A stretch of DNA of 64,000 nt from Candidatus Woesearchaeota archaeon (lineage in GTDB: Archaea > Nanobdellota > Nanobdellia > SCGC-AAA011-G17 > JACPNG01), in NCBI GenBank assembly GCA_964455655.1, contig CAYVWZ010000002.1:24502-88501 (forward strand), written 5' to 3'. The notes beneath the pieces were generated by a model. The model worked only from the letters and a program-made list of their open reading frames with translations, was not told the origin of the DNA and made no database searches. Each line of letters starts with the position of its first letter. Positions within the stretch are counted from its first letter, which is position 1. The position numbers and the translations under genes were made by a program. Positions 1 through 50,872 of this stretch are shown piece after piece.

Positions 1-1435
1 AATACTTATCACCCTTGTTGTAGTCATACTTGCTATCTTTCCAGGACTAAGAGATCCATTAGGCTCATTAGGAGTATTAATCAAAGGATATACTGATAGC
101 TTCAAAGAGTTTAGATCAAAACCTGATTCAGTTAAAACCCAAGAAGAAGCAACAGAATTCAATAATAGAATAACTAGAATACTTGAAGGATCAGGAACTT
201 GTGAAGGATATAAAGAAGTACAAATAATTTATAGTAAAGCAAAACGCATAGGAAAACAAGAACCACCAACATGGGAAGTATGCACTCAAAACAAACAAGG
301 AAATGTCTTAACCACTGATACCAACAAATATTGCGACAAAATCTCTGATGCACCAAAACAAGAAGTTTCATACTTTAAACAATACATACAGTGTCTAATA
401 AAAGGAAGAGATAGCACCTTAGAAACTTGTCAACAAGCAGATACTGAAGCAGATAAATTCTTACAAAATAATGGGCGATACAACCCTCAATCAGTATTCG
501 CAAAAGAAAATCCTCATGAAGTGTACGTTGCTGTTGGAGATTGTTATTTTAGAATAGGGACTCAACAAAGTCTGGTAAAAGCTAAAGCCACGTATGAAAA
601 GTATCAAACTTACGCAAAAAATAATGGGGCTGTATCTAATCCAGCAACACAAAGTCAAGTACAAACGAAAATACAAGAGTTAGAACAACAAACAAATCCG
701 AACTTATGGGAAACTGTTAAGAAAGAATATCAAGGAGATCCTGAAGCAGACTTTAATAAAGCACTAGGCGATTATCGCGCTAAGAATTATGTTTTTGCTG
801 AGCAGGAATTTAAAGATCTCGTTGTGCAGTCAGCAAGTGTCAGTACTGAATCAACAGCGTTGAAACAGATTGTAGCAAATTCTGTATACTTTATCGGAAC
901 TTCTCAACGCTTACAAAATGGCGTAGACTCTCAAGCAGTATGCGATAAACTAACAACTTCAACAGACATTATTACTTTAGATTATCCTGGATCTACATTC
1001 TTATCTCAAACAGAGATGGTTGGTCCTATAAAACCACAAGCCCTTTACGAGACTGCTCACTGTTTCAAAGAACTTCCAAGTTTAGACGCACAGGAAAAAT
1101 CACAAAAATACTACATATTGCTGTTAGAATCTTTAAACTTTAATAGAGATGATCCGCTCATACAAAATGCTATAAAAGACCTTGATCCTCACTGTAATAC
1201 CATAGAACAAAACTCTGCAATGTTTGAAGATGAAGGAAATTGCTTAGCTCAAAATGATTATCTTCGTAATAAGATTCCTGCAACATCTCCTCTAAGGAAA
1301 AATTTATTCTGCTATTGGGATACTAACACACCATTCTATACTGACGGTATTTGCCAAGCATGTTCTCATATCGGTGCACCTCAAGCAGATTCTAGCTCAA
1401 CTAATTCAGATTACACTTACAATAGCGCATGCTAA
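1..1435 (+). CDS. hypothetical secreted Cys-containing protein, 5' end outside window
   Basis: Frame 2 is open from base 2 to the stop at 1433-1435 (read directly: ILITLVVVILAIFPGLRD...). The track ORF 521..1435 starts at an internal GTG. No catalytic motif recognised. Confidence 0.45.
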   Translation, partial: ILITLVVVILAIFPGLRDPLGSLGVLIKGYTDSFKEFRSKPDSVKTQEEATEFNNRITRILEGSGTCEGYKEVQIIYSKAKRIGKQEPPTWEVCTQNKQGNVLTTDTNKYCDKISDAPKQEVSYFKQYIQCLIKGRDSTLETCQQADTEADKFLQNNGRYNPQSVFAKENPHEVYVAVGDCYFRIGTQQSLVKAKATYEKYQTYAKNNGAVSNPATQSQVQTKIQELEQQTNPNLWETVKKEYQGDPEADFNKALGDYRAKNYVFAEQEFKDLVVQSASVSTESTALKQIVANSVYFIGTSQRLQNGVDSQAVCDKLTTSTDIITLDYPGSTFLSQTEMVGPIKPQALYETAHCFKELPSLDAQEKSQKYYILLLESLNFNRDDPLIQNAIKDLDPHCNTIEQNSAMFEDEGNCLAQNDYLRNKIPATSPLRKNLFCYWDTNTPFYTDGICQACSHIGAPQADSSSTNSDYTYNSAC

Positions 1436-1553
1436 GACTCAGGCGCTGGTGCAATTCTTTAAACAGTGTTTAGAGAGGAAAGCAACCATCAACATTTTTC
1501 TTGGCATATAAAGTATTACAAACTTTAGAGGAATGTCCTTCGGCCTAAAACTC

Positions 1554-1567
1554 AAAACATTTATATA
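1554..1567 (+). promoter_or_regulatory. archaeal TATA-box-like element (tttatata) about 28 nt upstream of the ATG at 1592, leaderless-type promoter
   Basis: AT-rich TTTATATA motif at 1560-1567 in the intergenic region. Spacing to the start codon is typical of archaeal leaderless transcripts. Confidence 0.3.
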
Positions 1568-1591
1568 CCACAATAGAAATAACACAACGCA

Positions 1592-2041
1592 ATGGTAAAA
1601 AAAAGGCAGAGTAAGAAAGGCCTTGAGTTAAGTATCAATACAATCATTATTCTCGTTATTGTTGTCGTTGCACTCGTAGCAATTGCAGCATTTTTCTTCG
1701 GAGGATTCGGAAAACTCACTGATAGTATCAAAAATGTCTTCTTTGGAGCAAGTGGAGGATACGATAAAACCCTAGCAATTCAAAATTGTGAAACGTATTG
1801 CGATCAATTACAAAGTCTAGGCGATAGAATAGATAGTGATGCACCAGACTCTGCATATTGTACAAGATCTTTTGATGTAGACACCAATAATGATGGAAAA
1901 GCTGACAAACGATTCTATTGCTCAGATAGTGCATCCGCTGCAGTTATAGACCAAGAACTCCCTGATTATATTACCAGTAGAGATAGCCTCGATGTAAGCT
2001 GTGGAAAACCATCTGGTGGAATTATCACTTGTACTCAATAA
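1592..2041 (+). CDS. archaeal type IV pilin-like protein (class III signal peptide), Cys-containing C-terminal domain
   Basis: N-terminus MVKKRQSKKG-LELSINTIIILVIVVVALVA has a basic stretch, a KG cleavage motif and a hydrophobic helix, as in archaeal prepilins. Confidence 0.6.
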   Translation: MVKKRQSKKGLELSINTIIILVIVVVALVAIAAFFFGGFGKLTDSIKNVFFGASGGYDKTLAIQNCETYCDQLQSLGDRIDSDAPDSAYCTRSFDVDTNNDGKADKRFYCSDSASAAVIDQELPDYITSRDSLDVSCGKPSGGIITCTQ

Positions 2042-2074
2042 GTTTTTATTCTCTTTAAGTTTACACTTCTCTTC

Positions 2075-2650
2075 ATGACATCAAAAAAAGGATCAAGTAT
2101 CATTCTTACTTTTATTATAGGACTTGTTGTTGGACTTATGGTGGTAGCATTTCTTGCCAAATTTAATCCGCTTCTCTTTAGTTTATTCCCTGGAGGAGAA
2201 GATAGTAAAGAATCATTTCAAGAAATAACAGCTAAAATTATTTCTCTTCGTTCAGGGGAAGCAGCACAATACAATCTTAGAATTGCTAAAGGAGACGTAC
2301 TTATAGGATTTAGTAAAGCACAGACAGAAAATGTTGAAAGTAATAAATTCACCTCGACAGTAATAGGACCTATTGAACGCCCTGAAACTCTTTGTCCCAT
2401 AGATCTTACTTGTATCTGTTTATGTGACTCAAAAGTAAAAGCACCAGGAACGTGTAAAACTCTTGATACACAATGCTCAAAACTCGAAGGAATAGAACGC
2501 ATAGAAGGAATTATTGTTGATGACGAAGGAAAAGAAGTAAGAAAATCACAAGACGAACTCTTTATCAAAGGAAAAGCAAATATTCTTCTCTCATTACAAT
2601 TAGGAAAAGACAATATTCTTAGTGTGAAGGTCCCTGAAAACACTTCGTAA
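2075..2650 (+). CDS. archaeal type IV pilin-like protein (class III signal peptide)
   Basis: N-terminus MTSKKG-SSIILTFIIGLVVGLMVVAF. Same operon and strand as the neighbouring pilin-like genes. Confidence 0.55.
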   Translation: MTSKKGSSIILTFIIGLVVGLMVVAFLAKFNPLLFSLFPGGEDSKESFQEITAKIISLRSGEAAQYNLRIAKGDVLIGFSKAQTENVESNKFTSTVIGPIERPETLCPIDLTCICLCDSKVKAPGTCKTLDTQCSKLEGIERIEGIIVDDEGKEVRKSQDELFIKGKANILLSLQLGKDNILSVKVPENTS

Positions 2651-2681
2651 GGCTAATAAATTAAGAATTTAGTCCATTACC

Positions 2682-3734
2682 ATGTTTAAAAAAGGAGGAT
2701 TAGGTAGTGTACTCTTTCTCGTTCTCGAACTCACATTTCTCATTCTCCTTGTAGGAGGACTTGTAAGCAAAGTCCATGATCAAGCTGAAGGAAGAACTTA
2801 CGAAAAAAAATATTTTGCAAGAGACTTCGCACTGCTCTACGACACCTTACAATTAAGCAATTATCCATTAAGTGCTGATTATCAACTCCTCAAAGACAAG
2901 TACAAACTCAACATTACACAGAAAGGAGACTATTTCTATGTCGACATAACCACATTCGGAGAATCTTTTGCGAATAGATATCCCATTATTGTACATAAAG
3001 ACTTTGTCATACCCTCAACACAATTAGGAAAAGACGGAATACAAACATTGACCATTTCTGGAAATGGACAAGTTATTGGAGTAGGACAGAGCTATGACAC
3101 AGGAGAAATAAATCCCGCACTCTTTAGTAGACAAGAAGGAACTCTAGACTACCCTGTTAAAACAACAGACAGAACAGTAACTTCCTGCTTCGGATTACGA
3201 GGAGATGCACTCAATGAAGAAAACGAACCAGAATCCATAGACTGCCACAAGAAAGGAACACACTGTGGAGTAGACTTCAGAGCAAGAAACTCAGAAAAAG
3301 CAGTAGCAGTAACAGACGGAACTATTACCGCAGTACTCTTTGGAGAAAACAATTGGGGAACAATCATATTAAGACCTGATGGTATAGACAATGTTGAATT
3401 TGTCTACTTACATTTACGAAGTTTTTGCCCAACACCAGGGACATGTATCAAAGAACAACAGCATGTAAACAAAGGAGATGAAATAGGAATTACAGGAAAT
3501 ACCGTACCCTCATGGTATAAAGGAACAATCTATCCACACCTCCATTTTGAAATGATTTATGACGAAACAAGAAATCAAAATGGAGAAATAATCTCTGATA
3601 AGAAAAAAGTAGACCCCCTTGCATCAGGATTATTTAATCTCAAAGAAATAAACTTTAAACAAGGAATAAATTGCGATTTGAATAAAGAAGCATACTCCTA
3701 CAGAGAAGATATTGAACGGGGAATCGGGCCATGA
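2682..3734 (+). CDS. M23 (LytM/lysostaphin-like) metallopeptidase domain protein with pilin-like class III signal peptide
   Basis: N-terminus MFKKGG-LGSVLFLVLELTFLILLVGG. C-terminal region has the HxxxD motif (HCGVD) and HxH motif (HLHFE) with M23-type spacing (FGLRG...HCGVDF...DGTITAV...YLHL...GNTV...PHLHFE). Confidence 0.7.
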   Translation: MFKKGGLGSVLFLVLELTFLILLVGGLVSKVHDQAEGRTYEKKYFARDFALLYDTLQLSNYPLSADYQLLKDKYKLNITQKGDYFYVDITTFGESFANRYPIIVHKDFVIPSTQLGKDGIQTLTISGNGQVIGVGQSYDTGEINPALFSRQEGTLDYPVKTTDRTVTSCFGLRGDALNEENEPESIDCHKKGTHCGVDFRARNSEKAVAVTDGTITAVLFGENNWGTIILRPDGIDNVEFVYLHLRSFCPTPGTCIKEQQHVNKGDEIGITGNTVPSWYKGTIYPHLHFEMIYDETRNQNGEIISDKKKVDPLASGLFNLKEINFKQGINCDLNKEAYSYREDIERGIGP

Positions 3735-4282
3735 GCGAGTCAGACATTCCATTCAAAGAAGGAGGAGAATGGTATTTTATTCTTTACAGACTAGGACTAG
3801 CAATAATTGTCGTTGCAATAGTGTTAGTGATGACCAGCAAGTATGAGGGAAGAGACATTGACGTAACACCATTAGAATCAGAACTCCTCCTTGATAGAGT
3901 GTATTACTCAGCAACGTGCTTTGCTGCTAACGACAACATACGAGGATATGCAGGAGAACTTGATATGGACAAATTCACTCAAGAACAACTCACTACATGC
4001 CTTCATGGACCCTTCTATATTAAAGTTGAATTACTCAACCAGAAACAAATACTCTATAATGATGAAGATCTGTATATACGCAACGAACCCTACTGCAAAT
4101 TCTCAACATTTACTTGCACAACAAGATTAGTTCCCGTACTTATTAGAAACGGAAAAATTACAACAGACACCCTCAACATCACTGTTATTATCCCAAAACA
4201 AGATAGAGACCAAACTATTGATACAAGCATTACACCCATAGAACCATCAATACCTTCAGACAAAACAACGAGGGCTGGATGA
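3731..4282 (+). CDS. hypothetical membrane-anchored protein
   Basis: ORF overlaps the previous stop (ATGA-type coupling). One TM helix (FILYRLGLAIIVVAIVLVM). Confidence 0.45.
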   Translation: MSESDIPFKEGGEWYFILYRLGLAIIVVAIVLVMTSKYEGRDIDVTPLESELLLDRVYYSATCFAANDNIRGYAGELDMDKFTQEQLTTCLHGPFYIKVELLNQKQILYNDEDLYIRNEPYCKFSTFTCTTRLVPVLIRNGKITTDTLNITVIIPKQDRDQTIDTSITPIEPSIPSDKTTRAG

Positions 4283-4824
4283 AAAAACTCAACAAGAAAG
4301 GATTCCTTGAAGAATTCATGACCGAATTCCTAGCAGCAGTTGCAATAGTAATTATTGTGATAGTATTCGGACTCTTATTCAATTTCGCAGGAGCATTCAA
4401 AGTATTACCAGAAGTTACTCTTACTCTTGCAGAAACTGATGCAAAAATCATTCATCTTGTCTATCTCAAAACTCCCTATGAAGACGGAACCGTAAGCGAT
4501 GAACTCATTCGTATAAGCATGGAAGAAGATGAGAGAAAACAAGAAGAGAGAATAGCAAAACTCCAAGAATTCAATACAGAATTTATTAAACCCTATCCAG
4601 GAATGGTCATTAACGGACGTATTCAAACAAAAGAAGACAACATCCTTCTCAAACCAGTCTATTCTGAATCACGAGAAAAAGAACCAACACTCTTACAAAA
4701 ATCCTCTGAAAGCACTATTACTCTTCCCACACCAAAAGGAGATATTAATGTGAGTATTGGATTAGTCAATATTTACGATATCCAAATCTATAAGCCCTCA
4801 TCAGGTGAAATCAATGAACATTAA
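4279..4824 (+). CDS. archaeal type IV pilin-like protein (class III signal peptide)
   Basis: N-terminus MKKLNKKG-FLEEFMTEFLAAVAIVIIVIVFGLLF. Overlaps the neighbouring genes. Confidence 0.5.
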   Translation: MKKLNKKGFLEEFMTEFLAAVAIVIIVIVFGLLFNFAGAFKVLPEVTLTLAETDAKIIHLVYLKTPYEDGTVSDELIRISMEEDERKQEERIAKLQEFNTEFIKPYPGMVINGRIQTKEDNILLKPVYSESREKEPTLLQKSSESTITLPTPKGDINVSIGLVNIYDIQIYKPSSGEINEH

Positions 4825-6250
4825 GCGAGACAAGAGAGGATTAGTATTTGGACCCTATGCTGCTGCAGCACTCCTCGGATTACTTACCTATGCACTCATT
4901 GCCTTTGTAGGAAATCCCCTTCCAACACCTCAAGAAATTGGAAGCATTCAAGCAGAACTTATCAAAAATATTGGCACAGCAGAAGCACAACATTATTATC
5001 AAGAAAAACTTGCAGAACAAAGCACAACAGAAACTCTCTACTCCTTAAGCAAGACAAGCGGACTCTCACAAGAACAAATTAGACAGTGCGATAGAGGAGA
5101 TGGCATTTATGTATACAATGAACAATGCAATCCCACAAAAGCAATCCAGGAAAACTTCTTAAAAAATTTCAAACTCATCCATGATGAAAAACTAAAAAAA
5201 CAATCCATTAGCATTACCTCTTATTCTTTAGAACATAATACGCTCATAGGAACATATCGAATTATTGGAATTACAGGAGCACAACAATCTTACAACATCC
5301 AAAATAAACTTACTACAGAAAAAACACCTGGAAAAATACTTACAGCACCACCAACATATCCCGAATGTTCCCCTGGAACCTCAAGAGATCAATGCTATAA
5401 CAAACTCATTTCAGAAATAGCACAACGTTATGGAATGGATCCTCTTATGATCAAATCAATCATCAAAGTAGAATCAGCATTTAATTCAACAGCAAAATCT
5501 TCTGCAGGAGCACTAGGATTAATGCAGCTCGTTCCTTCATCAGCAATAGCAGATCTTAAAGACACAAGATACTCTGCAGGAAAGTATTGCAATGCACGAG
5601 GACTGAAAGAAGAAATTATTAATGATCCTAACCTCCTTAATGGAGACAATCCCTCTATATTCACTCCAGCAGTTAATATTGAACTAGGAACTTGCTACTA
5701 CGCATTCCTCTATGATCATTTTAATGGAGATCATCAATTAGCACTTATTGCATATAATCAAGGAGTTGGTGCAACAGAGAGAGCTCAAGGAAATCCAACC
5801 AATGCAGAAACAACAGATTACATTAACAAAGTCCTTACCGTCTATCATGCTTCTGAAAATAAAGACTTAACATTTATTACACTCACAAACCCTACACTTC
5901 CTTCTAAAATAACTGGAAGAGCTGTTGAAGAAGTAAAAGAGCAAGCCCCCTCAAAAATTATAGGAAATATCTATGTTGATTATAGTTTCAATGTAAGCGT
6001 TCGCGGAACACTCGATGACTACAAAAATATTTACGAAACTACGCAAGAAAAAGGAAACTGCCTCCTCGGAGATAATCCTCAATCATGCTACCATAATGAA
6101 CACGGTTATACATGGAAAGTTACGATGAGGGAGGGATATCCATTAATTACTGTTATAACCTCTACAAGAGATCCATTACACCCATCGCGAGAACCTGTAA
6201 CCATAACATTCTATGCAGATCCTCAATGGTTAAAAAATCCTAATCCTTAA
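4805..6250 (+). CDS. lytic transglycosylase (SLT/GH23 lysozyme-like domain) protein, N-terminal membrane anchor
   Basis: SLT signature YGMDPLMIKSIIKVESAFNSTAKSSAGALGLMQLVP...ALIAYNQGVGA with the catalytic ES. Confidence 0.7.
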   Translation: MKSMNIKRDKRGLVFGPYAAAALLGLLTYALIAFVGNPLPTPQEIGSIQAELIKNIGTAEAQHYYQEKLAEQSTTETLYSLSKTSGLSQEQIRQCDRGDGIYVYNEQCNPTKAIQENFLKNFKLIHDEKLKKQSISITSYSLEHNTLIGTYRIIGITGAQQSYNIQNKLTTEKTPGKILTAPPTYPECSPGTSRDQCYNKLISEIAQRYGMDPLMIKSIIKVESAFNSTAKSSAGALGLMQLVPSSAIADLKDTRYSAGKYCNARGLKEEIINDPNLLNGDNPSIFTPAVNIELGTCYYAFLYDHFNGDHQLALIAYNQGVGATERAQGNPTNAETTDYINKVLTVYHASENKDLTFITLTNPTLPSKITGRAVEEVKEQAPSKIIGNIYVDYSFNVSVRGTLDDYKNIYETTQEKGNCLLGDNPQSCYHNEHGYTWKVTMREGYPLITVITSTRDPLHPSREPVTITFYADPQWLKNPNP

Positions 6251-6277
6251 AAAGAAGTTTCATACTGAGAATAAACA

Positions 6278-7696
6278 ATGCCTAAGAAAAAAAGAGGAAT
6301 ACGAGGAAAGAGAGGAGAACAGAACTTAGGAACACCTCAACGAGTAGAAATAGACTGGAAAAATCCTTTCACTTCAGCACCATCAGAACGAGAACCTATT
6401 GTTGTTCAAAATACTATTCACGCAACACTCAAAAAAGATAAGGGAATATTCGGAGACTTTGCAAAAAAACTCATACTTACAGCAATCATTGTAGCAGTGT
6501 TATTTTTCTTCTTGTTCATTTTTACCGATTGGGGTCCCTTACTCGTAACCAATGGAGGAATATATTTTCAAAAAGCAATTGCAATAGTCTCCACAACAGC
6601 TGGAGGAATTAGAACCACATTAACAAACCCTGGAGAAACATTCGGGTCATGGGATAATCCAGAAGCAACGAGACTAGGCTCAGAAGAGAGAGGAGTATTC
6701 ATAAGTTCATTTAAAGCGCAGAGAGATTATGAACAAGGACAACAAGCAGACCTTCAAGGACAAGTACTTATTAAAAATCTAAAAGATACTCGTCCAATGA
6801 GTCTTAAAGTTTCATGCTATACAAAATATACTCCCCCTGGAACAATAGAACCAGAAATTACTCCAGGACTTGTAACGATACCCTTATTTCAAAAATCAGA
6901 ACCTCTAGAATTACAAGAAATACTTGTTGATCCTGAAGCACTTACTATTCTCAAAAACGGAGGAGAATTCCAATTCGGTGTTCATTGCATTATACCAAAA
7001 GAAGCATCAGATAGTGTTGTATACACTGGAGATAATACTCTCATTACAAGAGAAGCAATATTACGTATAGACTATAGAGCACAAACACAGTCCCTACTTA
7101 AAGTTGTAACATCTCCATCTCCCTATAGCAAAGACCAACTCGATAATCTCGCACTCTCTTTACGAAATCAAGGAATTGTTTCGAGAGAGGGAAAACTCGG
7201 AGCACAAACATCAGGAGGTCCTTTAGATCTCCAGGTAGACCTTGGAATCGCACAACCACTTACACCAGGTTCATTCCCTACTGAAGGAATACAAACCATT
7301 CCACTAACTATCGGACTCACTGATAGTCAAGGATGGGAAGGACAACTTACAAGCATTTACAACATTGAAATCTTAGGATTACCAAATTTGCTGAGGATTG
7401 ATCAGGGATGTAGAGACTTTGAACGAGGAAGCGGATTGCATGGCGAGCCTGCACTAAAACAAGAAATTATCCAAGAAGTAAATGATTGCATTAAAGAATT
7501 ACAAGATGATTCAAAAGCACAATGCGCATATAATCCTAGAAGATTGCGAGAAGCATTCTCATGCCAACTAAAACTCGAAACTCTTGGAGAAACTCCAAAC
7601 GTTCAAGATATTGTTGTTGAAGCAGACTATGATTACAGTATTAGCCAAAAAGGCGGAATTAATTATCAAAAACCACGAGAGAGTAGTACTCCTTAA
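6278..7696 (+). CDS. hypothetical membrane-anchored secreted protein
   Basis: Basic N-terminus followed by a TM helix (LILTAIIVAVLFFFLFIF). No recognised domain. Confidence 0.45.
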   Translation: MPKKKRGIRGKRGEQNLGTPQRVEIDWKNPFTSAPSEREPIVVQNTIHATLKKDKGIFGDFAKKLILTAIIVAVLFFFLFIFTDWGPLLVTNGGIYFQKAIAIVSTTAGGIRTTLTNPGETFGSWDNPEATRLGSEERGVFISSFKAQRDYEQGQQADLQGQVLIKNLKDTRPMSLKVSCYTKYTPPGTIEPEITPGLVTIPLFQKSEPLELQEILVDPEALTILKNGGEFQFGVHCIIPKEASDSVVYTGDNTLITREAILRIDYRAQTQSLLKVVTSPSPYSKDQLDNLALSLRNQGIVSREGKLGAQTSGGPLDLQVDLGIAQPLTPGSFPTEGIQTIPLTIGLTDSQGWEGQLTSIYNIEILGLPNLLRIDQGCRDFERGSGLHGEPALKQEIIQEVNDCIKELQDDSKAQCAYNPRRLREAFSCQLKLETLGETPNVQDIVVEADYDYSISQKGGINYQKPRESSTP

Positions 7697-7740
7697 GATC
7701 ATAGAAATACATATAAAACATCGTCCAGGAAAATTCCATA

Positions 7741-13587: not shown

Positions 13588-14367
13588 ATGCCAGACAAAG
13601 AGAGGAACACTATGTCAAGTAATGACCCTATAGGAATTGAACATCTTTTAGATGATAGCACAGATCCATTCATGACCGCTCATCAAACTGTCGATCGCGC
13701 TTTTGACAAACTTGCTACATTAATACCAAGAAATCTTAGAACTCAAGCATTCTCTATTTTAGCTCAAGCACGCGATGCACACGAAACACAAAGAAAAACA
13801 TATGGAGAACGACGTGTTGAAGCAATAGTTGATCCACTCACTAGAGTCTTTAACAAAAAAGGTTATCATGAAGTAGGCGATCTATGGTTAAGCGCTGCTC
13901 AAGATCTCTATAGAGAATCAGGACAACAACTTACTGGTGCTTTAAGTGTTCTAGATCTTAATTACTTTAAAAATATTAATGATAGATATGGTCACGCAGT
14001 AGGGGACGAATTACTTTCAAACGTAGGACAAGCACTTAATGAAGTTACACGATCTACAGATACACCTCTTCGAGTAAAAACACGAGAAGCAGCAGCACGC
14101 ACTGGAGGGGACGAGTTCGCAATCCTTCTTTTAGCAATACCTGTCCAAGGGCATGAAACAGTGCTCAGCAACGTACAAGACCGTATCAATAGAAGAACTG
14201 CACAATTATTTAGTCAGAGTCATCCTCAAATTTATGCTGATAACACCACTCACTTAAACGCTATTGCAAGTATGGGCAGCGCAGTCTACGGCCCTGATGG
14301 AGAAGACCTTTTTGATCTCTTTAAAGTAGCTGACAGAAATCTCTATAAAGTTAAAGCAAAGCGCTAA
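13588..14367 (+). CDS. GGDEF domain protein (putative diguanylate cyclase), no obvious sensor domain
   Basis: DPLTRVFN...LSVLDLNYFKNINDRYGHAVGDELL...RTGGDEFAILL...ADRNLYKVKA carries the GGDEF hallmarks with an intact GGDEF motif. No RxxD I-site. Confidence 0.75.
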   Translation: MPDKERNTMSSNDPIGIEHLLDDSTDPFMTAHQTVDRAFDKLATLIPRNLRTQAFSILAQARDAHETQRKTYGERRVEAIVDPLTRVFNKKGYHEVGDLWLSAAQDLYRESGQQLTGALSVLDLNYFKNINDRYGHAVGDELLSNVGQALNEVTRSTDTPLRVKTREAAARTGGDEFAILLLAIPVQGHETVLSNVQDRINRRTAQLFSQSHPQIYADNTTHLNAIASMGSAVYGPDGEDLFDLFKVADRNLYKVKAKR

Positions 14368-17617: not shown

Positions 17618-18253
17618 ATGAGCCTCCAGGACAAACTCAAAAATTTTGAAGCTATTCTTAAAGAAACTCCTCCAGAAAAACAACAAGAAAAACTCAACGA
17701 ACTCTTAGCAACATTAACACCTGAAGAACTAGAAGAACTACAAAAACAACAATGTGTAATATGCAACATTATTTCTGGAAAAACTCCTGCCCATATTATT
17801 TATCAAGATGAACACGTTATGGCAGCATTAGAAATAAACCCTGCAAGTGCTGGACATACCATTCTTTTCCCAAAGAAACACGCAAGCGTTTTTGCAACAC
17901 TACCAGAAGAAATTGTAGCACATGCATTCCTCGTAGCAAACAATATCGCAACAGCACAGTATGACATCCTAGAATCTGACGCAACAAATATCCATGTAGC
18001 AAATGGAGCAGCAGCAGGACAAAAACTACCACACGCAACCATCAACATAATCCCACGTTATGAAGGAGACGGAATAACATTCGAATGGACCTACGGAAAA
18101 CCAACACCTGATGAACTCAAGAAACTAAGCGAAAAACTCAAAGATAAAATCAAAACACCACAAAAACTTACCAAAGAAAAAGTTGTCGTACCACAAGAAC
18201 CAATAACTCCACCAGAGGACTTAGAACCAAGACCTCGAAGAAGAATTCCATAA
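17618..18253 (+). CDS. HIT-like protein with degenerate histidine triad, Pro/Glu-rich C-terminal tail
   Basis: CVICNIISGKTPAHIIYQDEHVMAALEINPASAGHTILFPKKH is the HIT fold N-terminal pattern. The triad region reads GQKLPHATINIIPR, with only one His. Confidence 0.5.
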   Translation: MSLQDKLKNFEAILKETPPEKQQEKLNELLATLTPEELEELQKQQCVICNIISGKTPAHIIYQDEHVMAALEINPASAGHTILFPKKHASVFATLPEEIVAHAFLVANNIATAQYDILESDATNIHVANGAAAGQKLPHATINIIPRYEGDGITFEWTYGKPTPDELKKLSEKLKDKIKTPQKLTKEKVVVPQEPITPPEDLEPRPRRRIP

Positions 18254-18285: not shown

Positions 18286-19023
18286 ATGCAATCAAAGAGG
18301 AAGGGGCAAACAACCATATTTGTTACAGTAGGAATACTCATTCTTATTATCATTAGCATCGGAGTCTACTACAGAACAACACTCAAAGACGCAATCCTAC
18401 CACAAACAAATCCCACTACCTTTAGTGATGAAGAAGAAAACGTTAGAAACTATGTAGAAGAATGCTTCCAAGACGGATTACAAAATGCCGTATTCTTAAC
18501 ACAGAAACAATCAGGACATTTGTACATTTCAGGAGAGACCTTTAATCTACACGGCGCAGAAATACCCTACGCATACACCCAAAATGGAAGCCAAGTATTA
18601 AACTCTGAAAGTCTAGAATCACAGTTCCAACAATACCTCATACAACAACTCTTCCAATGCACCAAACCATTAAACGTTACCTTCGAACAACCTGCAACAA
18701 CCGTTACTATCGATACTGAAGGAGTAAACGCGCGACTCATTTACCCCTTTACCTTAAGCCTTGCACAATCAAACATACGAAATGATTACCCCTACACCTA
18801 CGCTATCAAAGTACCCCTCTATAGTTTTCTAAAAATAACTCAATCTGTAGCGGATGCACTCGTCAGTCAACCACAAGAATTTCCTCTAGGATTATTAGTT
18901 AGCCAAAATATCTTCAAAACAGAGACTGTCATACTTGACAACGCAACACTTATACAATTAACACCACTCAACGCAACAAATGAAACTTACATTATCGCTG
19001 TAGAAAATGGTGATACTCAATGA
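18286..19023 (+). CDS. archaeal type IV pilin-like protein (class III signal peptide RKGQ-TTIFV)
   Basis: [27 protein letters not shown]. Shares a conserved E-x-C-x-x region with the 45114 and 50411 proteins. Its stop overlaps the next start. Confidence 0.6.
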
Positions 19024-21284
19024 AAAAAACAATACTCATCGCATTACTCATTATCATCTTAAGCTCTAGCACTCTCGCTGTCGCAAACTTAGAAAACTTT
19101 GCAGCACTGACCTTTAATCAATACGGAGCAATGGGAATAGAAAAAGCAACAGGAAGTAGCGAATCAGCACAACTCATCGCAAGCTTTGTTGGAGGGGACC
19201 CAACAACAGCAGCATTAAACGCATTTCTCGCACAAGCAGGAAAGAAAGATCCCGATATAGGACAATTACAACAACTTGCAACATGCACTGTTAACCCCCT
19301 AGGATGTGCACAAAGCCAAGTATTAGAACAAACAATGAAATCATTAACACCAGAACAAGCAAAAGCAGTAAACCTCCTAAGTCAAGTCCAAGGAAATGCA
19401 CAATTAGTTGAAGCACTCTTTGAAAAAGGAGAAGAAGGAACCGCAAGTGTTACCGAAAAAGGAGATCTAATCCTTAAAGATGATAAAGGAAATATTCGTT
19501 TACGCCTACCACCAGATACAAAAATAGAACAGGATAAAGAAAATCCTAACAAATATACTTTAAATTCCATGCAAGGAAAAGAAGCGCACTTCTTAGATCA
19601 AACAATAAGTGGTGCTGAAAGCTTAACACTCACTAGAAATCCAGAATTAGGAATAGAAACCATCACCATAACAAAAGGAACCAGTATAACTTATTGTACT
19701 GAGACAGGAACAAATTGTTTAAGTAATCTTGGAGAAGGAACAATCATAACCTCTCACATTATCGATAGAGCTGATGGAAAAAAAGCTACACTTCTCGCTA
19801 GACTACAAACAAAACTTGAGAAAGATACTCCTCACATCACCATCGACGGATATACCTATGATGACCTCAAGAAAGGAGATGTCATTAACTTTGCACGCTC
19901 TGACAATGGACCTAACGAACTAAGAATGATCAGAGCAAATGACGCGTATTCTTTAATGCTCGATGACCAAAAAACAGTCTATGGAAGCTTCGCAATCACA
20001 CGAGAATCAGGAAGAGATCAATACATGACATTATTCACCGGAAGCAGACTTGATACCAACGCAGGAATACCCAATAATGATGTAAGCATTCAAACAAAAG
20101 AACCAATCTACATCAATCTCAATGCAAACAATCTCAATAACTGCGGAGAACGCTGTGCAATAAGCATTATTGGAAATAAATTAACATCAGAACAACTCTC
20201 ACCCTTAACCACTATAATAAAAAAAATTAATGGAGCAGAAGCATACAAACTGACCCAAGCATCAGGATTCACCGTATTTTTAGATAGCAATACTATAAAC
20301 TTCAAAGAGAACGCAGACGCAAGAATAGAAACACAGGGAATAGAATATCACTTCCATAACGGAATGCTCAATCCTGTAACTATAGGAGAAACAGCAATCA
20401 CAAAAAATCTCAAAAACCATCCGACCATCACCTATACTGATATGAACGGACATCAAATGTCAGCAGCACCAACTCAAAGAGGAAATGATATACTCATAGG
20501 ATTTGCTCTAGAAAATGGAGAACTACAAAACACCTTCGCAGTAGAAGAACCCCTACCTGTAGAAGAAAAAGCTATTGATGAACTCCTTGAAAGAGACCAA
20601 GTAACTGCAGAAGAAATGCCTTGGAGCCTCCCACTCGTTACAGAATATTCTTGTAAAGATGGAACAAGAGTTGTATCTAAATCTGTCCACCAACATGATT
20701 CTGTATTCACTGAAGTTGCACCACGTTATGGATACGACCCATCAATACCAAAAGTCGTAATGGATTTAGAATCAAGCGGAAGACCCACAGCATTATCCCC
20801 TCAAGGAGCATATGGACTTATGCAGATCCAAGACCCTACCATGAGAGGACTATTACGAAAACCAACAGGAGACATGTGTAACTCCCTAGGAAAAGTTCAA
20901 GACACAAAACCAGGAATTTACTGCGCATGTAAATTTGATCAATACCCACCAGTAGGAGACTCAAAAAAACTTAGAGAACAAGCAAAACCAGCAGTAGATA
21001 GAGCACTCTGCTATTTACGATACAATGAAGCTGTTTTCATAGAAAAAGGAATTCTAAAAGAAACCGATTCCCAAGAAAAGAAATTAGCATTCTCTCTTGC
21101 AGCATACAATGCAGGACCTGATAAAGTTGAAAAATATGGAGGAGTACCACCATTCAAAGAAACACAGAAATTTGTAGAATGTATAACAAACTATGCAAGT
21201 TCTGTTCAATTAGCACGCACAGACCTCTTAGCTGGACAACAAATAGCTAGTGCTAGACCACCACCAACATCATCAGGCGGTTAG
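19020..21284 (+). CDS. large secreted protein with C-terminal lytic transglycosylase (SLT) domain
   Basis: Signal peptide [25 protein letters not shown] motifs [34 protein letters not shown] and [12 protein letters not shown]. Confidence 0.7.
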
Positions 21285-22126
21285 CGTAGAATTAACAATA
21301 CAAGATTACCTAACCATAACGTTATGATCAATGCAATAAAGAACGAAGGAACAAACGGAATACCATCCTTTACAAGAACTCTTTTTACTTTTAATTTCTT
21401 TAATAAATTCATTTGCTGCTTAGAAACACCAGGTTCTTTCATTGAATAAATTAATTTACCTTTTACAATAACATCTTCAGCAATCCAATCACCCTCTGTA
21501 AGATTTTTTACTTTCAAACGCCTAAACATACACGTTGTTTCTACTGTTTTAACAAAGAGATAGAGAACAACATACCCCATAGATATTCCCCCAAGTATTA
21601 AGAATAATGTGCTATAAATAGTATTTCTCACTGCAAAACTTCCAAGAAGAAATAATACCCCTAAACCACTAAACACCTCACACTGAACTCTAACCTCTTT
21701 AAAGATTCTTTTCAGACCATTGAAGAAATGCCTATGATAACGAATAGCAAGATATATACTCCATACAATTCCATACCCTGCTCCAACAATAACTAGATTT
21801 ACTAAGAAATGAAATAAAAACCATGGTACTATAGAAATAGAACCAAACAATGCTCCAACACCCATCAATAATTTTGTGTCTCCACCACCCCATTGTCGAG
21901 AATAGTACAATCCTTCACCAATAATAGCCATTACTGCTAGACCAACTAAACCAGCAAAAAACATCATCACATCATGTTCAACAATAGCACCAATAGCTCT
22001 TATACCAAGCCCTGCAGCAATTAAACTAAAACTAATCCAATTAGGAATTTCACGACGCTCAATATCCGTTATAGAACCAGCAAATAATCCAACAAGGCCT
22101 ACAATAATAAGAATAAGCTCAATCAC
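21281..22126 (-). CDS. archaeal prepilin/preflagellin peptidase (A24 family, PibD/FlaK-like)
   Basis: Polytopic membrane protein with the two Asp motifs ([12 protein letters not shown] and GGGDTKLL, the GxGD type). Confidence 0.7.
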
Positions 22127-26288: not shown

Positions 26289-27584
26289 ATGCTTCGTAAC
26301 AAAAAAGGTGTTGTAACTCCTACTGCTGGAACTGACATTGCAGCGCTTGTTCTTCTCATAGGACTTTTCATTGTAGCATATGTTCTTCTCCTTCCTCCCG
26401 CAGATCGTGATCAACTTCTTAAAGAAAATCCAAACTACAGAGATGGAAATGGAAGTTATGGTGATTATGGCCCCATTAACGGAATAAGTTTACTCAGCGC
26501 AATACCCGGAGAACTACATCCCTTTGAAAGAAACACTATCAAAAGAGATTTTCCACCAGCAATACTTTTCACAAGAGCAGAATCTAGCACTCTTAATTTA
26601 GCAACAGCATTAGAAGTAAAAAAATCACCCTTTAGCGAACAAACAAAGACCTACACCTTCTCAGCAGATAGACTAGAAGATATTACCGGAGCAAAACTCT
26701 ACTTCTTCATAGAAGAAGGAGACGGCACATTCTACATAGAACTTAATGGACAAACCATCTTTGAACAAGAAATAGGAAGCAACGATATCCCCATTGACAT
26801 CCCCGCAAACGCACTACGCGCAAACAATAACTTAAAGATGGGAGTGAGAGGAAGCTTATGGGAAGGATACAAACTCAAAAATGTCTACATCAAGTTTGAT
26901 AAAAACTACGCAAACACCATCGTACGAAGAAGCTTTGAACTAAGCCCAAATGAACGAAACGGCGTAGAAAGCGCAAAACTCAGTTATTATCTTAATTGTA
27001 TAAAAATAGCACAAAACGGCTACTTAACCATACTCCTCAATGATAGAATACTCAAATCAGACTTTGTTGTCTGCGATGTAGGAAAACAAACAATAGACCT
27101 ACCAAGAGAAAAACTACGAACAGGAACAAACAATCTCGAATTTAGAATAGATCAAGGAGACTATGAATTAAACGACCTTACTCTTGAAGTAAAGACAGGA
27201 CAAGCAAGCTATCCAACCTACAACTTTGAAGTTGATGATGACTACTACTTCGATATTAATACAGACTGCTTCGCAAGCTGTAGAGATAATTGTTATGATG
27301 ATTGTGGAAGCGACAACGACTGCTTCGATGTATGCCTCGATGACTGCGACGCAGAATGCTCAAGAGGAGAAGTAGTACTTGAAATACGATTCGTTAATGA
27401 TGAAGACAATAGAAGAAAGAAAGGATCAATAACTATCAATGATAATCAAATTAATTTCAATACAGACGATACACTCTACACAAGAGATATTACAGACACC
27501 ATACGAAGAGGAGATAACGTACTCAAAATAATACCCCAAAGTGATATGGAAATCGCAGATCTCAGAGTCGTGCTTATACGATAA
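26289..27584 (+). CDS. hypothetical membrane-anchored secreted protein with a compact acidic Cys-rich module
   Basis: N-terminus MLRNKKG-VVTPTAGTDIAALVLLIGLFIVAYVLLL is a possible class III signal. Internal module CFASCRDNCYDDCGSDNDCFDVCLDDCDAECS. Confidence 0.45.
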   Translation: MLRNKKGVVTPTAGTDIAALVLLIGLFIVAYVLLLPPADRDQLLKENPNYRDGNGSYGDYGPINGISLLSAIPGELHPFERNTIKRDFPPAILFTRAESSTLNLATALEVKKSPFSEQTKTYTFSADRLEDITGAKLYFFIEEGDGTFYIELNGQTIFEQEIGSNDIPIDIPANALRANNNLKMGVRGSLWEGYKLKNVYIKFDKNYANTIVRRSFELSPNERNGVESAKLSYYLNCIKIAQNGYLTILLNDRILKSDFVVCDVGKQTIDLPREKLRTGTNNLEFRIDQGDYELNDLTLEVKTGQASYPTYNFEVDDDYYFDINTDCFASCRDNCYDDCGSDNDCFDVCLDDCDAECSRGEVVLEIRFVNDEDNRRKKGSITINDNQINFNTDDTLYTRDITDTIRRGDNVLKIIPQSDMEIADLRVVLIR

Positions 27585-32399: not shown

Positions 32400-33140
32400 A
32401 TGCAAAAATCGGTGATACTGGTGATGATATTCTTAGGCACTCTTCTTATGAGCAGCATCGCTCTTGCCGCAGATCCACAATCCTTGAAATTTAACGGAAT
32501 AAATAGTTCTGTCATCATACCAGACCATAGCAGTCTAGACGTGTACCAAAATCAATTTAGTATTAGTCTATGGATTTATCCAAGAGCATTCGATAATAAT
32601 GTCTTACCAAGAATCATTGAGAAAAAAAGCGAATACATCGCAATCATGGGAGACCCAACAAATTCACGCTACAAAAAACTTGCAATGGAATTGCAAAGCC
32701 CAACAGGAAACACTGTAGAATTCTGGAGCAATAGCACCTTAAAATTAGAAACATGGCAACATGCCACCTTCGTCTATGATGGAATTAAAGGAACATGGTA
32801 CATTAATGGAATACCAACAGGAACTAAAATGCTCACGATCAAAGGAGAATGGACTGGAGAAGAACAATCCACCAAAGGATCAAAAATATATCTAGGAAGG
32901 AGAACATCAGACGTATCAAGAAACTTCTACGGAAATCTAGATGAATTACGAATTTACAATAGAATGCTCACACAAGAAGAAATAACCTCTATTTACAAAT
33001 CAGGAAGAATCAATAATCCAAGCTTAACCACTAATGGACTAGTTGTTTGGTACCCGTTTAATGAAAGCAAAGGAACAATACTCCACGACCAAGTACAGAA
33101 TTTGAACGGAAATATATCTGACGGAAAGTGGACGTACTAA
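32400..33140 (+). CDS. secreted concanavalin A-like lectin/LamG-domain protein
   Basis: Signal peptide ending ALA-ADP. LamG_3-type motifs FSISLWIYP...GNLDELRIYNRMLTQEEI. Confidence 0.6.
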   Translation: MQKSVILVMIFLGTLLMSSIALAADPQSLKFNGINSSVIIPDHSSLDVYQNQFSISLWIYPRAFDNNVLPRIIEKKSEYIAIMGDPTNSRYKKLAMELQSPTGNTVEFWSNSTLKLETWQHATFVYDGIKGTWYINGIPTGTKMLTIKGEWTGEEQSTKGSKIYLGRRTSDVSRNFYGNLDELRIYNRMLTQEEITSIYKSGRINNPSLTTNGLVVWYPFNESKGTILHDQVQNLNGNISDGKWTY

Positions 33141-45113: not shown

Positions 45114-45860
45114 TTGATCATGCATAAAAGAGGGCAAGTAACCATATTCGTTATACTAGGAATAGTAATCGTTGTTCTTGTTGCTCTTCTGTTCTTATTC
45201 CGAAGTAATCTCAATATTTCAGGCGGAGGAAAAACTCCTACCAATATCAAAGAATTCACAGAGAGTTGTGTAGACCAAGTAGGAAGAGAAGCACTCATCA
45301 AAGTAGGAATACAAGGAGGATACTATAATGTTCCAGCATCTACAACATCAGTACATAGAGAAGAACCAGCATATGGATCAATTACTATCCCCGTATGGAA
45401 TTTTGGAGCTGAATCAGAAATACCCTCACTCATCACTATTAATCAAGAAATAAATTCTTACTTCAAAGACCACTTTAACGACTGTATCAATGACTATTCC
45501 TCATACTCAAATGAAGGATGGACTGTAGAATCAGGAGAAATTAATGTAAACACCGACTTCCAAAGCGGACAAACCGTACTAGCCGCAAACTACCCTGTGA
45601 CTGCAACAAAACAAGAAGAAACAGTGACCTTCGATGCATTAACACCAATAACCATACCATGGGATTTCCTTAATACCTATGAAACAGGATCAGAAGCAGC
45701 AGCACTCTTCGGAAGACAACGAGCAATACCCGCAAATTATGTTATCTCACAGGGATATGGATTCTTAACCTTTAATCAAAATGGAACAATAATATTTAGA
45801 ATTACATCACAAAAAGACGATGAGGAGAAGAAATACGTTCTAGCCTATGCGGTTTATTAA
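45114..45860 (+). CDS. archaeal type IV pilin-like protein (class III signal peptide KRGQ-VTIFV), partner of giant surface protein
   Basis: MIMHKRGQVTIFVILGIVIVVLVALLF. Conserved TESCVDQ region. Its stop overlaps the start of 45847. Confidence 0.6.
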   Translation: MIMHKRGQVTIFVILGIVIVVLVALLFLFRSNLNISGGGKTPTNIKEFTESCVDQVGREALIKVGIQGGYYNVPASTTSVHREEPAYGSITIPVWNFGAESEIPSLITINQEINSYFKDHFNDCINDYSSYSNEGWTVESGEINVNTDFQSGQTVLAANYPVTATKQEETVTFDALTPITIPWDFLNTYETGSEAAALFGRQRAIPANYVISQGYGFLTFNQNGTIIFRITSQKDDEEKKYVLAYAVY

Positions 45861-49794: not shown

Positions 49795-50377
49795 TCCTCA
49801 AGAGAAAAAAACAGAGAAAACATCAATACTTAAAGACCCTAGCATGAAAGACATAATCCTTGGAGGAGCTCTTCTTGTATTAGGAATATTCATTCTTATT
49901 TTAGGACTAGCAGGAACATCACTTTTCCCAAAAACACTAGAAATCATATTAGCAGTACTTATCCTTGGAGGAGGAATAGGATATTCACTCTATAGATATA
50001 AACATCCTCCATTAACAGAAGAACACCAACTCGTAACATCACCAATCTCAACAATACAACAACAACTATCAGAACACAAAAATGTTTACCAACTCAATCA
50101 ATACGTATCAACATTACTCCAACGTGGAAAGAAAGAACAAGAAATAAAGAATTTATGTAAAACAGCTGGATGGAGCGAGAAAGAAGTTAGTGATGCACTT
50201 GATCGTGCAAGAAAAACAACTAAAGCAGATCCTTACAAACAAATAGAAGACTATATTACACTACAACTTGCAAAAGGAACCTCACCAGAAAATATCCAAG
50301 TAACCTTACAAAAAGCAGGCTGGAAAAAAGAAGTTATAGACACACTCATTAAAAAGAATTCTCAAAAGAAAAAGTAA
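49775..50377 (+). CDS. membrane protein with two cytoplasmic KAGW repeats (tail-domain paralog of the 50869 protein C-terminus)
   Basis: TTG start with a GGGAGG RBS; alternatively the ATG at 49844. Two TM helices. Repeats KKEQEIKNLCKTAGWSEKEVSDAL and SPENIQVTLQKAGWKKEVIDTL. Confidence 0.5.
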   Translation: MPTPKDNPQEKKTEKTSILKDPSMKDIILGGALLVLGIFILILGLAGTSLFPKTLEIILAVLILGGGIGYSLYRYKHPPLTEEHQLVTSPISTIQQQLSEHKNVYQLNQYVSTLLQRGKKEQEIKNLCKTAGWSEKEVSDALDRARKTTKADPYKQIEDYITLQLAKGTSPENIQVTLQKAGWKKEVIDTLIKKNSQKKK

Positions 50378-50410
50378 ACTTTAATAAGCATCATAGCGCC
50401 ATCACAACAT

Positions 50411-50872
50411 ATGAATAAGAGAGGTCAGGTGACTGTATTTGTTATTATCGGTATAGTCCTCATTATTATTCTTGCAATTGTTTTTGTTATACTAAGAACT
50501 CCTGCAGGAGTAAAAGCACCACAAGATACTGATGAACTTACTGAAGCATTACAAATTTGTTTAGAAGAACAACTTAGCACAGGAGTCGCACATCCCTTAT
50601 TCGCATCATTCCCCACTATAGACTTATCAAAACAATGGTTAGAAAATAATACAAAAACAAATTTCATTCAAAATTGTGCACCTATAGCAGAAAATTATCC
50701 TGGAGCAACAACAAAAGAAGAACTTATTACATCACAAGTCTTAATCCAAGGACCAGATCTTAATACTTTTGAAATTATTAGAGTAACTATTAATTTCCCC
50801 GTAACTATAACACAGGGCACTTCAACAGAACAATTGCCCGTAATCATTGCAGAGGTCTATGAACACCAATGA
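50411..50872 (+). CDS. archaeal type IV pilin-like protein (class III signal peptide KRGQ-VTVFV), partner of giant surface protein
   Basis: MNKRGQVTVFVIIGIVLIIILAIVFVIL. Conserved LQICLEEQ region. Its stop overlaps the start of 50869. Confidence 0.6.
   Translation: MNKRGQVTVFVIIGIVLIIILAIVFVILRTPAGVKAPQDTDELTEALQICLEEQLSTGVAHPLFASFPTIDLSKQWLENNTKTNFIQNCAPIAENYPGATTKEELITSQVLIQGPDLNTFEIIRVTINFPVTITQGTSTEQLPVIIAEVYEHQ

Follow-up and report, generated by a model that had tools for sequence, protein, structure and literature searches.

In the PilY1 (PilC) minor-pilin tips of bacterial type IV pili and the GspK-I-J pseudopilus tip, small subunits present a large non-pilin protein at the tip of the filament for adhesion. 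Woesearchaeota and Pacearchaeota are abundant archaea that, to our knowledge, are still uncultivated. Surveys of archaeal type IV filaments report pilus loci with predicted PilY-like adhesins and with Ig-rich ones, as well as many stand-alone pilins (PMC4858521; bioRxiv 10.64898/2026.04.22.720090). Large extracellular proteins with a soluble lytic transglycosylase (SLT) domain are already described from Woesearchaeota and Pacearchaeota, and the role suggested for them is attachment to bacterial walls or their degradation (PMC8204110, PMC9723730, PMC10936187). In the cited parts of two of these reports the proteins are taken as a hint of bacterial hosts, with no context given for their deployment (PMC8204110, PMC9723730), and the hosts of both groups are treated as unidentified (PMC8204110, PMC10936187). 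For other archaea, the killing of bacteria by peptidoglycan hydrolases has been demonstrated (PMC12352652), and type IV pili drive episymbiosis in ultrasmall bacteria from the candidate phyla radiation (CPR) (PMC9894109, PMC11623550).

Here we describe a two-gene cassette in a 64,000-nucleotide stretch of a Candidatus Woesearchaeota archaeon (assembly GCA_964455655.1, contig CAYVWZ010000002.1, positions 24,502 to 88,501), hereafter called the window. The gene that starts at window position 18286 encodes a small protein with a class III, or prepilin-type, signal; it overlaps the gene for a 754-residue secreted protein that ends in an SLT domain of glycoside hydrolase family 23 (GH23), and a gene for a prepilin peptidase converges on the pair. 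Similar pairs of a small and a large gene are widespread in related genomes. We read the small protein as a pilin-like adaptor or anchor that would present interchangeable, giant Sec-exported cargo, here a murein-cleaving enzyme directed against bacterial walls, and we give this reading an even chance of being correct. The two-gene unit is probably part of the toolkit with which this group of archaea attaches to, or attacks, other cells.

The small prepilin-type protein and its secreted partner

The product of the 18286 gene (Table 1) has the leader expected of type IV pilin-like proteins, which is short and basic, ends in G, A or S and is followed by about 20 hydrophobic residues. The predicted cleavage site lies between G7 and Q8. 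A hydrophobic helix at approximately residues 8-30 is followed by a flexible linker and then by a predicted extracellular alpha/beta domain of about 200 residues, in whose core C60, G77 and C125 are invariant throughout the family and a QGG(Y) motif is present. The AlphaFold2 (AF2) model, made with a 42-sequence alignment, had a predicted local distance difference test score (pLDDT) of 93.4 and a predicted template modelling score of 0.81; in it, a short flexible linker connects a transmembrane (TM) helix to a repeated helix-plus-sheet domain. Comparison of this model with the PDB using Foldseek gave no significant match. The signal is of the pilin type, but the globular domain is not recognizable as a pilin fold; the predicted fold seems to differ from that of minor pilins and to be unsolved, with no close solved relative.

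Only two relatives of the small protein were retrieved by a word-based search. An exhaustive profile search, with the mature parts of four sequences as query, gave 4,295 representatives (clusters at 50% identity) at E<=1e-3 and 1,314 at E<=1e-10, and throughout these matches the family domain is preceded by approximately 30-55 N-terminal residues. Neither Pfam nor NCBIfam has a model of the family. The N-terminal consensus, K-[KR]-[GAS]/Q-[VI]-T-x-F, in which the slash marks the predicted cleavage site here and below, is near-invariant and was common to 144 of 150 retrieved representatives. Thus the class III signal that had been claimed for the 18286 protein is sustained, and the protein belongs to a real family. 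Counted from the cleavage site, the conserved positions are K at -3, K or R at -2, G, A or S at -1, Q at +1 (93%), V or I, T or S at +3 (90%), a hydrophobic residue, F at +5 (85%) and G or A at +9; such position-by-position conservation exceeds the need of a plain membrane anchor. The glycine of the cleavage site had a median position of 5 in the 150 representatives, and the hydrophobic stretch is about 22 residues long. We take the Q at +1 to resemble that of the Methanococcus EppA-type pilins. Family members range in length from 245 to more than 1000 residues, much above typical major pilins, and about half end in Ig-like, He_PIG or PKD modules of the kind typical of adhesive proteins exposed at the surface.

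The genome scan for family loci used a 5-sequence subfamily alignment, not the broad 42-sequence one. It gave 77 loci in species-representative genomes. Sixty of them bear a Woese-, Nano- or Pacearchaeota label; the 17 others are labelled unclassified archaeon (8), Methanosarcinales (8) or bacterium (1). The eight 'uncultured Methanosarcinales archaeon' and the one 'bacterium' metagenome-assembled genomes (MAGs) carry typical family cassettes (our loci L019, L029, L049, L053, L060, L061, L075, L079 and L046), and these labels probably reflect taxonomic mislabelling or contamination of bins, not true occurrence outside the DPANN archaea (Diapherotrites, Parvarchaeota, Aenigmarchaeota, Nanoarchaeota as well as Nanohaloarchaeota). 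The family is essentially confined to MAGs of Woesearchaeota, Nanoarchaeota and Pacearchaeota.

The small gene and the gene of its large partner overlap by the four nucleotides ATGA, within the string actcaATGAaaaaa, so that the TGA stop of the first lies in the ATG start of the second; the overlap of stop and start described in the original prediction is confirmed. A Sec-type signal (residues 1-22, then /NLE) can be read directly from the sequence of the 754-residue protein, which has no C-terminal membrane anchor or hydrophobic segment. At its C-terminus, a match to the Pfam SLT model PF01464 (E=1.8e-11; 44 bits, against a gathering cut-off of 21.3) covers residues 563-614 and only the N-terminal half of the model. 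The characteristic motifs are all found: E584-S585, with E584 (nucleotides 20769-20771) as the catalytic Glu, GLMQI at 599-603 and AYNAGP at 695-700. The region from ES to GLMQ aligns with MltC (9vi7, 4c5f) and EmtA (2y8p) in a phmmer search of the PDB, and the distal half, residues 693-722, aligns to the second half of the SLT domain in a 481-residue protein encoded elsewhere in the window. About 92 residues separate motif II from motif III, with a Cys-containing insertion between the two, and Pfam aligns only the first half of its model because this insertion splits the domain between GLMQ and AYNAG. The insertion is about 35-40 residues long, by an estimate against the motif spacing of Slt70 and not by measurement. 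With the profile match above threshold and the motifs in place, the SLT/GH23 C-terminus that had been claimed is confirmed: the domain is, by its sequence, a genuine one, and is predicted to cleave peptidoglycan. The region ahead of it is an orphan. Among the matches listed, its only partial relatives are the partners in two related loci, L002 and L005, and it showed no homology to the SLT partners of 1.5-2.1 thousand residues described below. A single-sequence AF2 model of the whole protein had a pLDDT of 34.9, too low for use.

Conservation of the cassette and the place of the peptidase

Of the 77 loci from species-representative genomes, 70 had a same-strand downstream gene that could be evaluated; together with metagenomes the set comprised 157 related loci. 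The downstream open reading frame (ORF) had at least 300 codons in 61 of the 70 loci and at least 900 in 44, and in 26 the small and large genes overlapped by exactly four nucleotides. The partners had a signal-peptide-like N-terminus in 54 of the 61 cases by a strict rule, and the remainder looked similar by eye. This architecture spans small proteins of about 20% identity and unrelated families of partners, so the cassette of a small pilin-like and a large secreted protein, first proposed for this window, is a widespread and conserved arrangement. Two or more family genes were present in 25 of the 157 related loci, and in this window as well, often as small-large-small-large arrays such as that at 45114-56076.

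Clustering of neighbouring ORFs revealed recurrent large families encoded almost exclusively by the gene next downstream of the small one (45 of 68, 19 of 21, 12 of 17 and 9 of 9 members); 39 partner clusters were seen only once. The partner family also follows the small protein with which it is encoded. In 91 of 137 cases the nearest-neighbour small protein had the same partner family, compared with a mean of 12.8 and a maximum of 25 after shuffling.

The closest syntenic relative is L005, in which the small protein is 35% identical to that of the window, the product of the downstream gene is 40% identical to the N-terminus of the 754-residue protein, and the overlap is the same. L002 is a strain variant that has kept the same partner and overlap, with an identical small protein. 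Alignment of the DNA with L002 disclosed a sharply bounded block of about 400 nucleotides, over the first ~134 codons of the large gene (Table 1), with 62-71% nucleotide identity, whereas its flanks are 96-100% identical. The block looks like an allelic replacement, by recombination, of a putative helical module at the N-terminus of the partner.

An SLT protein was found in or beside at least five other cassette loci. It is the direct partner of the small protein in L039 (2068 residues), L056 and L101 (1093 residues), and in L034 and L045 its gene is the second one downstream. Among complete members of a single partner family, those of L034, L039 and L056 have the SLT domain at their end, and those of L050, L058, L069 and L078 lack it. 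The SLT domain is thus a modular and recurrent cargo of the cassettes. In two loci it occurs twice: in L045 (1730-8099) and L101 (3746-10043) a gene for an SLT protein of about 750 residues lies directly upstream of the small gene, and one for a protein of 846 or 1093 residues lies downstream. These two loci, from distant MAGs, have a denser array of murein hydrolases than does the window.

The peptidase gene that converges on the cassette encodes an A24 enzyme. Its product matches Pfam Peptidase_A24 (E=1.3e-12; 48.5 bits against a cut-off of 26.5), with catalytic Asp residues at D21, in SITDIE, and at D83, in GGGD. The match to NCBIfam FlaK_Arch is weak (E=1.6e-11; 44 bits against an equivalog cut-off of 330). 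The stops of the peptidase gene and of the gene for the 754-residue protein overlap by 3 nucleotides, and on its own strand the peptidase gene heads a different string of genes, together with a 102-codon ORF and a kinase gene, which we take, by reading its sequence and not by a profile, to be ABC1/UbiB-like. When the window peptidase was used as a phmmer query, no A24 homologue was found within the 6-8 kb flanks of the 157 related loci. A functional linkage by position was rejected on this count, and with adjacency in none of the 157 loci we take the convergence here to be incidental; the overlap looks like chance packing of genes in a compact genome. A cognate A24 peptidase is nonetheless encoded within the window, and its sequence suggests that it is likely the trans-acting processing enzyme for the class III substrates of the cell. 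The original prediction had linked the pilin-like family both to a murein-cleaving enzyme and to its processing peptidase. The first link is strengthened by the recurrence of SLT proteins in other cassettes, and the convergent PibD/FlaK-like gene with its D...GGGD signature is present as described; it is the positional link to the peptidase that is not supported.

Other genes of the window

Two further pairs of a small and a large gene are found in the window (Table 1). A family hidden Markov model (HMM) built with the window sequences left out recognized the core domains of both the 18286 protein (E=1.4e-39) and the 45114 protein (E=7.5e-44), and the two are also related by BLASTP (7e-9). The 50411 protein was matched by the full model (E=4.6e-13) at model positions 2-68 only, that is, by its signal, its TM segment and the stretch to the first Cys, and its core domain gave no match with the family HMM. 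As a full family member it was therefore rejected, since its N-terminal 70 or so residues alone match; from its sequence it is better described as a truncated or divergent relative. The suggestion that all three small proteins can be aligned and have a common region after the TM segment thus holds robustly for the 18286 and 45114 proteins, and for the 50411 protein over those N-terminal residues only.

The giants encoded at 45847-49794 and 50869-56076 have MopE-type Cys-rich repeats and a 'DGGGTFF(V/I)AEAS' module in common. Between the two cassettes, a gene at 49775-50377 encodes a 200-residue protein that has a TM segment, and a tail similar to the cytoplasmic C-terminal tail of the 1735-residue protein (QGKK.Q[DE]IK.LCK.AGW). 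This likeness of sequence suggests that the two products may have an intracellular docking motif in common.

A second cluster of peptidoglycan-hydrolase genes occupies window positions 1-7700 and continues upstream (L163, 1-13854). It consists of about 17 genes on the same strand, nearly all with no Pfam match. Among its products are an M23 peptidase (2682-3734) and the 481-residue SLT protein mentioned above (4805-6250), which has a full SLT domain (E=2.9e-22) and an N-terminus of KRG/LVFGP followed by a TM helix. Small class III-like proteins are encoded at 1592 (KKG/LELSINTIIILV), 2075 (KKG/SSIILTF) and 4279 (KKG/FLEEF), and further upstream in L163 there are ORFs of 499 and at least 726 codons with no assignment. 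The cluster could be a pilus or secretion locus itself, or else an integrated element.

Among the other genes of the window are those for the archaeal housekeeping proteins EF-1beta, Pelota, SRP54, FtsY, RadA, TruD and Bud32. A gene for a HIT-family hydrolase precedes the 18286 gene and is also found upstream of the small gene in L005 (E=6.3e-36); it is probably a mere neighbour of the cassette. The protein encoded at 13588-14367 has a GGDEF diguanylate cyclase domain (E=8.7e-28). Signalling by cyclic-di-GMP is unusual in archaea, and this protein may be a further acquisition of bacterial type. A 246-residue protein (32400-33140) with a Laminin_G_3, or concanavalin-like, lectin domain (E=3.3e-24) may be another candidate for a surface or glycan-binding function. 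A 431-residue protein (26289-27584) has the class III-like N-terminus MLRNKKG/VVTPTAGTDIAALVLLIGLF; it had no Pfam or NCBIfam match and falls outside the family of the 18286 protein.

Table 1. Positions of the cassette genes and of related or neighbouring features in the window (aa, amino acids; nt, nucleotides; a slash marks the predicted cleavage site)
Feature	Position	Strand	Description
HIT-family hydrolase gene	17618..18253	+	Pfam HIT, E=1.3e-16; 32 nt upstream of the 18286 small gene
Small prepilin-type protein, 245 aa	18286..19023	+	Leader MQSKRKG, class III signal KRKG/QTTIF
Large secreted partner, 754 aa	19020..21284	+	Sec-type signal aa 1-22; orphan region aa ~23-550; C-terminal GH23/SLT
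Sharply bounded divergent block, first ~134 codons of the 754-aa gene	19022..19421	+	DNA alignment with L002 in 100-nt bins
SLT/GH23 lytic transglycosylase domain, aa ~553-735	20676..21224	+	Pfam PF01464; motifs
A24 aspartic prepilin/preflagellin peptidase (PibD/FlaK/EppA-like), 281 aa	21281..22126	-	Peptidase_A24; D21, GGGD83
Paralogous small class III-signal protein, 248 aa	45114..45860	+	MIMHKRG/QVTIF...; full family member
Large partner of 45114, 1315 aa	45847..49794	+	Signal peptide; Cys-rich MopE-type repeats; C-terminal TM anchor; 14-nt overlap
Short divergent small relative, 153 aa	50411..50872	+	MNKRG/QVTVF...
Large partner of 50411, 1735 aa	50869..56076	+	Signal peptide; 7 MopE-type Cys-rich repeats; C-terminal TM; cytoplasmic tail; 4-nt overlap

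Proposed function of the cassette and comparison with known systems

A plausible course of events can be proposed for the cassette, which we take to be one copy of a modular unit for surface display that is characteristic of Woesearchaeota-like DPANN archaea. Judging from its N-terminal motif, the small protein would enter the membrane, where an A24 peptidase, for example that encoded at 21281-22126 acting in trans, would cut between G7 and Q8. The N-terminal helix would then stay in place, either as an anchor in the membrane or as a minor or tip subunit of a type IV filament, and the disulfide-bonded domain of about 200 residues would face outward. Translational coupling, conservation of the cassette and co-segregation of the partners suggest that this domain would hold or present the Sec-exported product of the downstream gene. 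The GH23 domain of that product, whose identity is clear from its motifs, would be expected to cut the bonds between N-acetylmuramic acid and N-acetylglucosamine (MurNAc-GlcNAc) in bacterial peptidoglycan and might serve to breach or grip a bacterial host or prey, or to scavenge murein. Because archaea have no murein, the presumed substrate is the wall of another organism. Other cassettes, both in this genome and in its relatives, carry different cargo, such as giants with Cys-rich repeats or rich in Ig and fn3 domains, which argues that the small protein would be a generic adaptor and SLT one interchangeable effector. A more ambitious version is that Woesearchaeota-like DPANN archaea have a dedicated and hitherto undescribed presentation system, in which an adaptor family of more than 4,000 clusters with class III signals loads interchangeable giant effectors, murein-cleaving enzymes among them, onto type IV filaments or the cell surface; we think this possible but less likely than not.

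Several observations weigh against the adaptor interpretation. In the AF2 model a linker at residues 38-47 separates the TM helix from the globular domain, whereas in classical pilins the alpha-1 helix is continuous. Two of the three large partners in the window have their own C-terminal TM anchor and so would need no anchor protein. No pilus ATPase or platform gene was present among the window ORFs scanned with Pfam or, for the 157 related loci, among the annotated families of recurrent neighbours, which are housekeeping genes (PCNA, primase, S3Ae, TFIIB and ScpA). A jackhmmer search of 116 partner N-termini, seeded with the three window partners, found no common docking motif. The N-terminus of the partner has diverged in L002 with no change in the small protein, unlike what would be expected of tight co-evolution at an interface there, and the co-segregation of partner families could be plain vertical inheritance of adjacent genes.

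Some of these points would be accommodated if the small protein were an N-terminally anchored membrane stalk, processed or not, that tethers or organises large envelope proteins and enters no filament, after the manner of SlaB/SlaA or the Sulfolobus bindosome. A TM helix followed by a flexible linker, a globular domain not recognizable as a classical pilin fold, flanks (6-8 kb) and annotated neighbours in which pilus machinery was not found, and a 754-residue protein with no anchor of its own are all consistent with a stalk. Archaeal surface proteins that have class III signals and form no filaments, such as the sugar-binding proteins of the Sulfolobus bindosome, are moreover established in the part of the literature cited (PMC4858521). 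The conservation of Q at +1, T at +3, F at +5 and G at +9 goes beyond the need of a pure anchor, however, and the window partners that already end in a TM anchor are as awkward for a stalk as for an adaptor; we consider a stalk possible but rather improbable. It is also conceivable that the genes are adjacent but functionally independent, a stand-alone pilin and unrelated envelope proteins placed in one transcription unit of a compact genome. Archaea commonly have stand-alone pilin genes away from pilus operons (PMC4858521), the partners have no docking motif in common, and their families are extremely diverse, as the 39 singleton clusters attest. Against such independence stand the retention of the architecture in 61 of 70 loci across small proteins of about 20% identity, the 26 exact overlaps, the tandem arrays, the tracking of partner family with small-protein subfamily (91 of 137, where about 13 would be expected) and the length of the small proteins, and we find it unlikely.

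Two further alternatives concern the SLT domain and the origin of the locus. Bacterial SLT proteins are often dedicated to the passage of pili or secretion machines across the wall. An SLT protein that served the cell's own envelope or the assembly of its appendages, as do the specialised lytic transglycosylases of bacterial type IV pili and of type II and type IV secretion systems, VirB1 being an example, or that cut a glycan other than murein, would fit with the second cluster of the window, in which pilin-like genes accompany an M23 peptidase and another SLT protein. We regard this as very unlikely. Archaea, including DPANN, have no murein to open (PMC8204110), the domain has catalytic motifs characteristic of the murein-specific enzymes of family 1, and an M23 endopeptidase and two SLT proteins within 64 kb resemble an arsenal for degrading murein. 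An origin of the cassette as cargo of a virus or mobile element might be suspected from the recombination-like divergent block between near-identical strains, and from the frequency of SLT and lysozyme-like domains in phage tails, together with a weak Phage_lysozyme2 match in L034. Yet a search of 2.9 million viral contigs gave no member of the family, the annotated recurrent neighbours are core housekeeping genes in conserved synteny, and the GC content, which is low (about 34-42%) in the window, is even across the cassette region. A viral or mobile origin was rejected in view of the viral contigs and the housekeeping neighbours, and we think that there is scarcely any chance of it.

If the presentation system outlined above is real, these cassettes would be the apparatus for host recognition and wall breaching of a major uncultivated clade of archaea, and would be direct genomic evidence that some of them have bacterial hosts or prey. 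The arrangement parallels episymbiosis by type IV pili in the CPR, and it would extend to DPANN the use of archaeal peptidoglycan hydrolases against bacteria that is described in the cited part of PMC12352652. If the genes are merely neighbours, a large family with no curated model has still been usefully annotated. The cassette offers handles for experiment: a marker family of small proteins, pairs for binding assays and a short SLT domain suitable for expression. Its value is in the combination of a large unmodelled family with a conserved cassette, which makes the host-interaction biology of the clade approachable by experiment, and the annotations themselves are solid.

Among described proteins, those nearest to the large partner are the published SLT proteins of Woesearchaeota and Pacearchaeota (fam00969; PMC8204110), which, in the passages cited, come from the same apparent lineage, are likewise large, Sec-secreted and of the GH23/SLT type, and have been given the same proposed role. 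The partners of 1.5-2.1 thousand residues with a C-terminal SLT domain in L039, L056 and L034 look like proteins of this published type, a likeness by description, whereas the 754-residue protein is much shorter and has an N-terminus that is not homologous to partners of the L039, L056 and L034 kind. The passages of PMC8204110 and PMC9723730 consulted and the open-access literature searched treat the large proteins by themselves and make no mention of an upstream, translationally coupled partner with a class III signal, and no description of the family of small proteins, or of the systematic way in which it is coupled to giant secreted proteins, was found in that literature. With the family 1 lytic transglycosylases (Slt70, MltC, MltE/EmtA and the VirB1 type), of which MltC and EmtA gave the best PDB matches, the domain has the E-S, GLMQ and AYNxG motifs in common. 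It differs from them in its archaeal host, which has no murein, in the 550-residue orphan region ahead of it and in the Cys-containing stretch inserted between motifs II and III.

For the small protein, several comparisons can be made. Streptococcus sanguinis PilB, a modular pilin (PMC8179133), likewise combines a class III signal with functional adhesion modules, as do the long forms of our family with their Ig-like, PKD and He_PIG modules; here, however, the downstream gene supplies the main functional module, the enzyme included, as a polypeptide of its own and not as a pilin fusion. The Sulfolobus bindosome also consists of class III surface proteins other than classical pilus subunits, but its substrates bind solutes and are not adaptors for giant partners. 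SlaB and SlaA are similarly a small anchored protein and a large secreted protein held at the surface and encoded beside it; SlaB has a C-terminal anchor and no class III signal, unlike the 18286 protein, and there is no homology to SlaB/SlaA or to the bindosome. The arrangement also resembles those of the PilY1 (PilC) minor-pilin tips and the GspK-I-J pseudopilus tip, in which small substrates of prepilin peptidase are likewise encoded beside a large Sec-exported protein of about 1000 residues. The cassettes have no sequence homology to these systems, stand alone at a distance from any machinery for pili, and are present several times in a genome. Pfam detected neither a PilY1 beta-propeller nor DUF2341 in the three partners of the window or in the 16 large proteins scanned that are associated with cassettes at other loci, and the cassettes lie outside pilus operons, so the likeness to a PilY1-type tip adhesin would be one of function only. 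In sum, the SLT part of the system was already known and we rate the link to the peptidase as incidental; the cassette of adaptor and cargo is a variation on the theme of minor pilins and tip adhesins.

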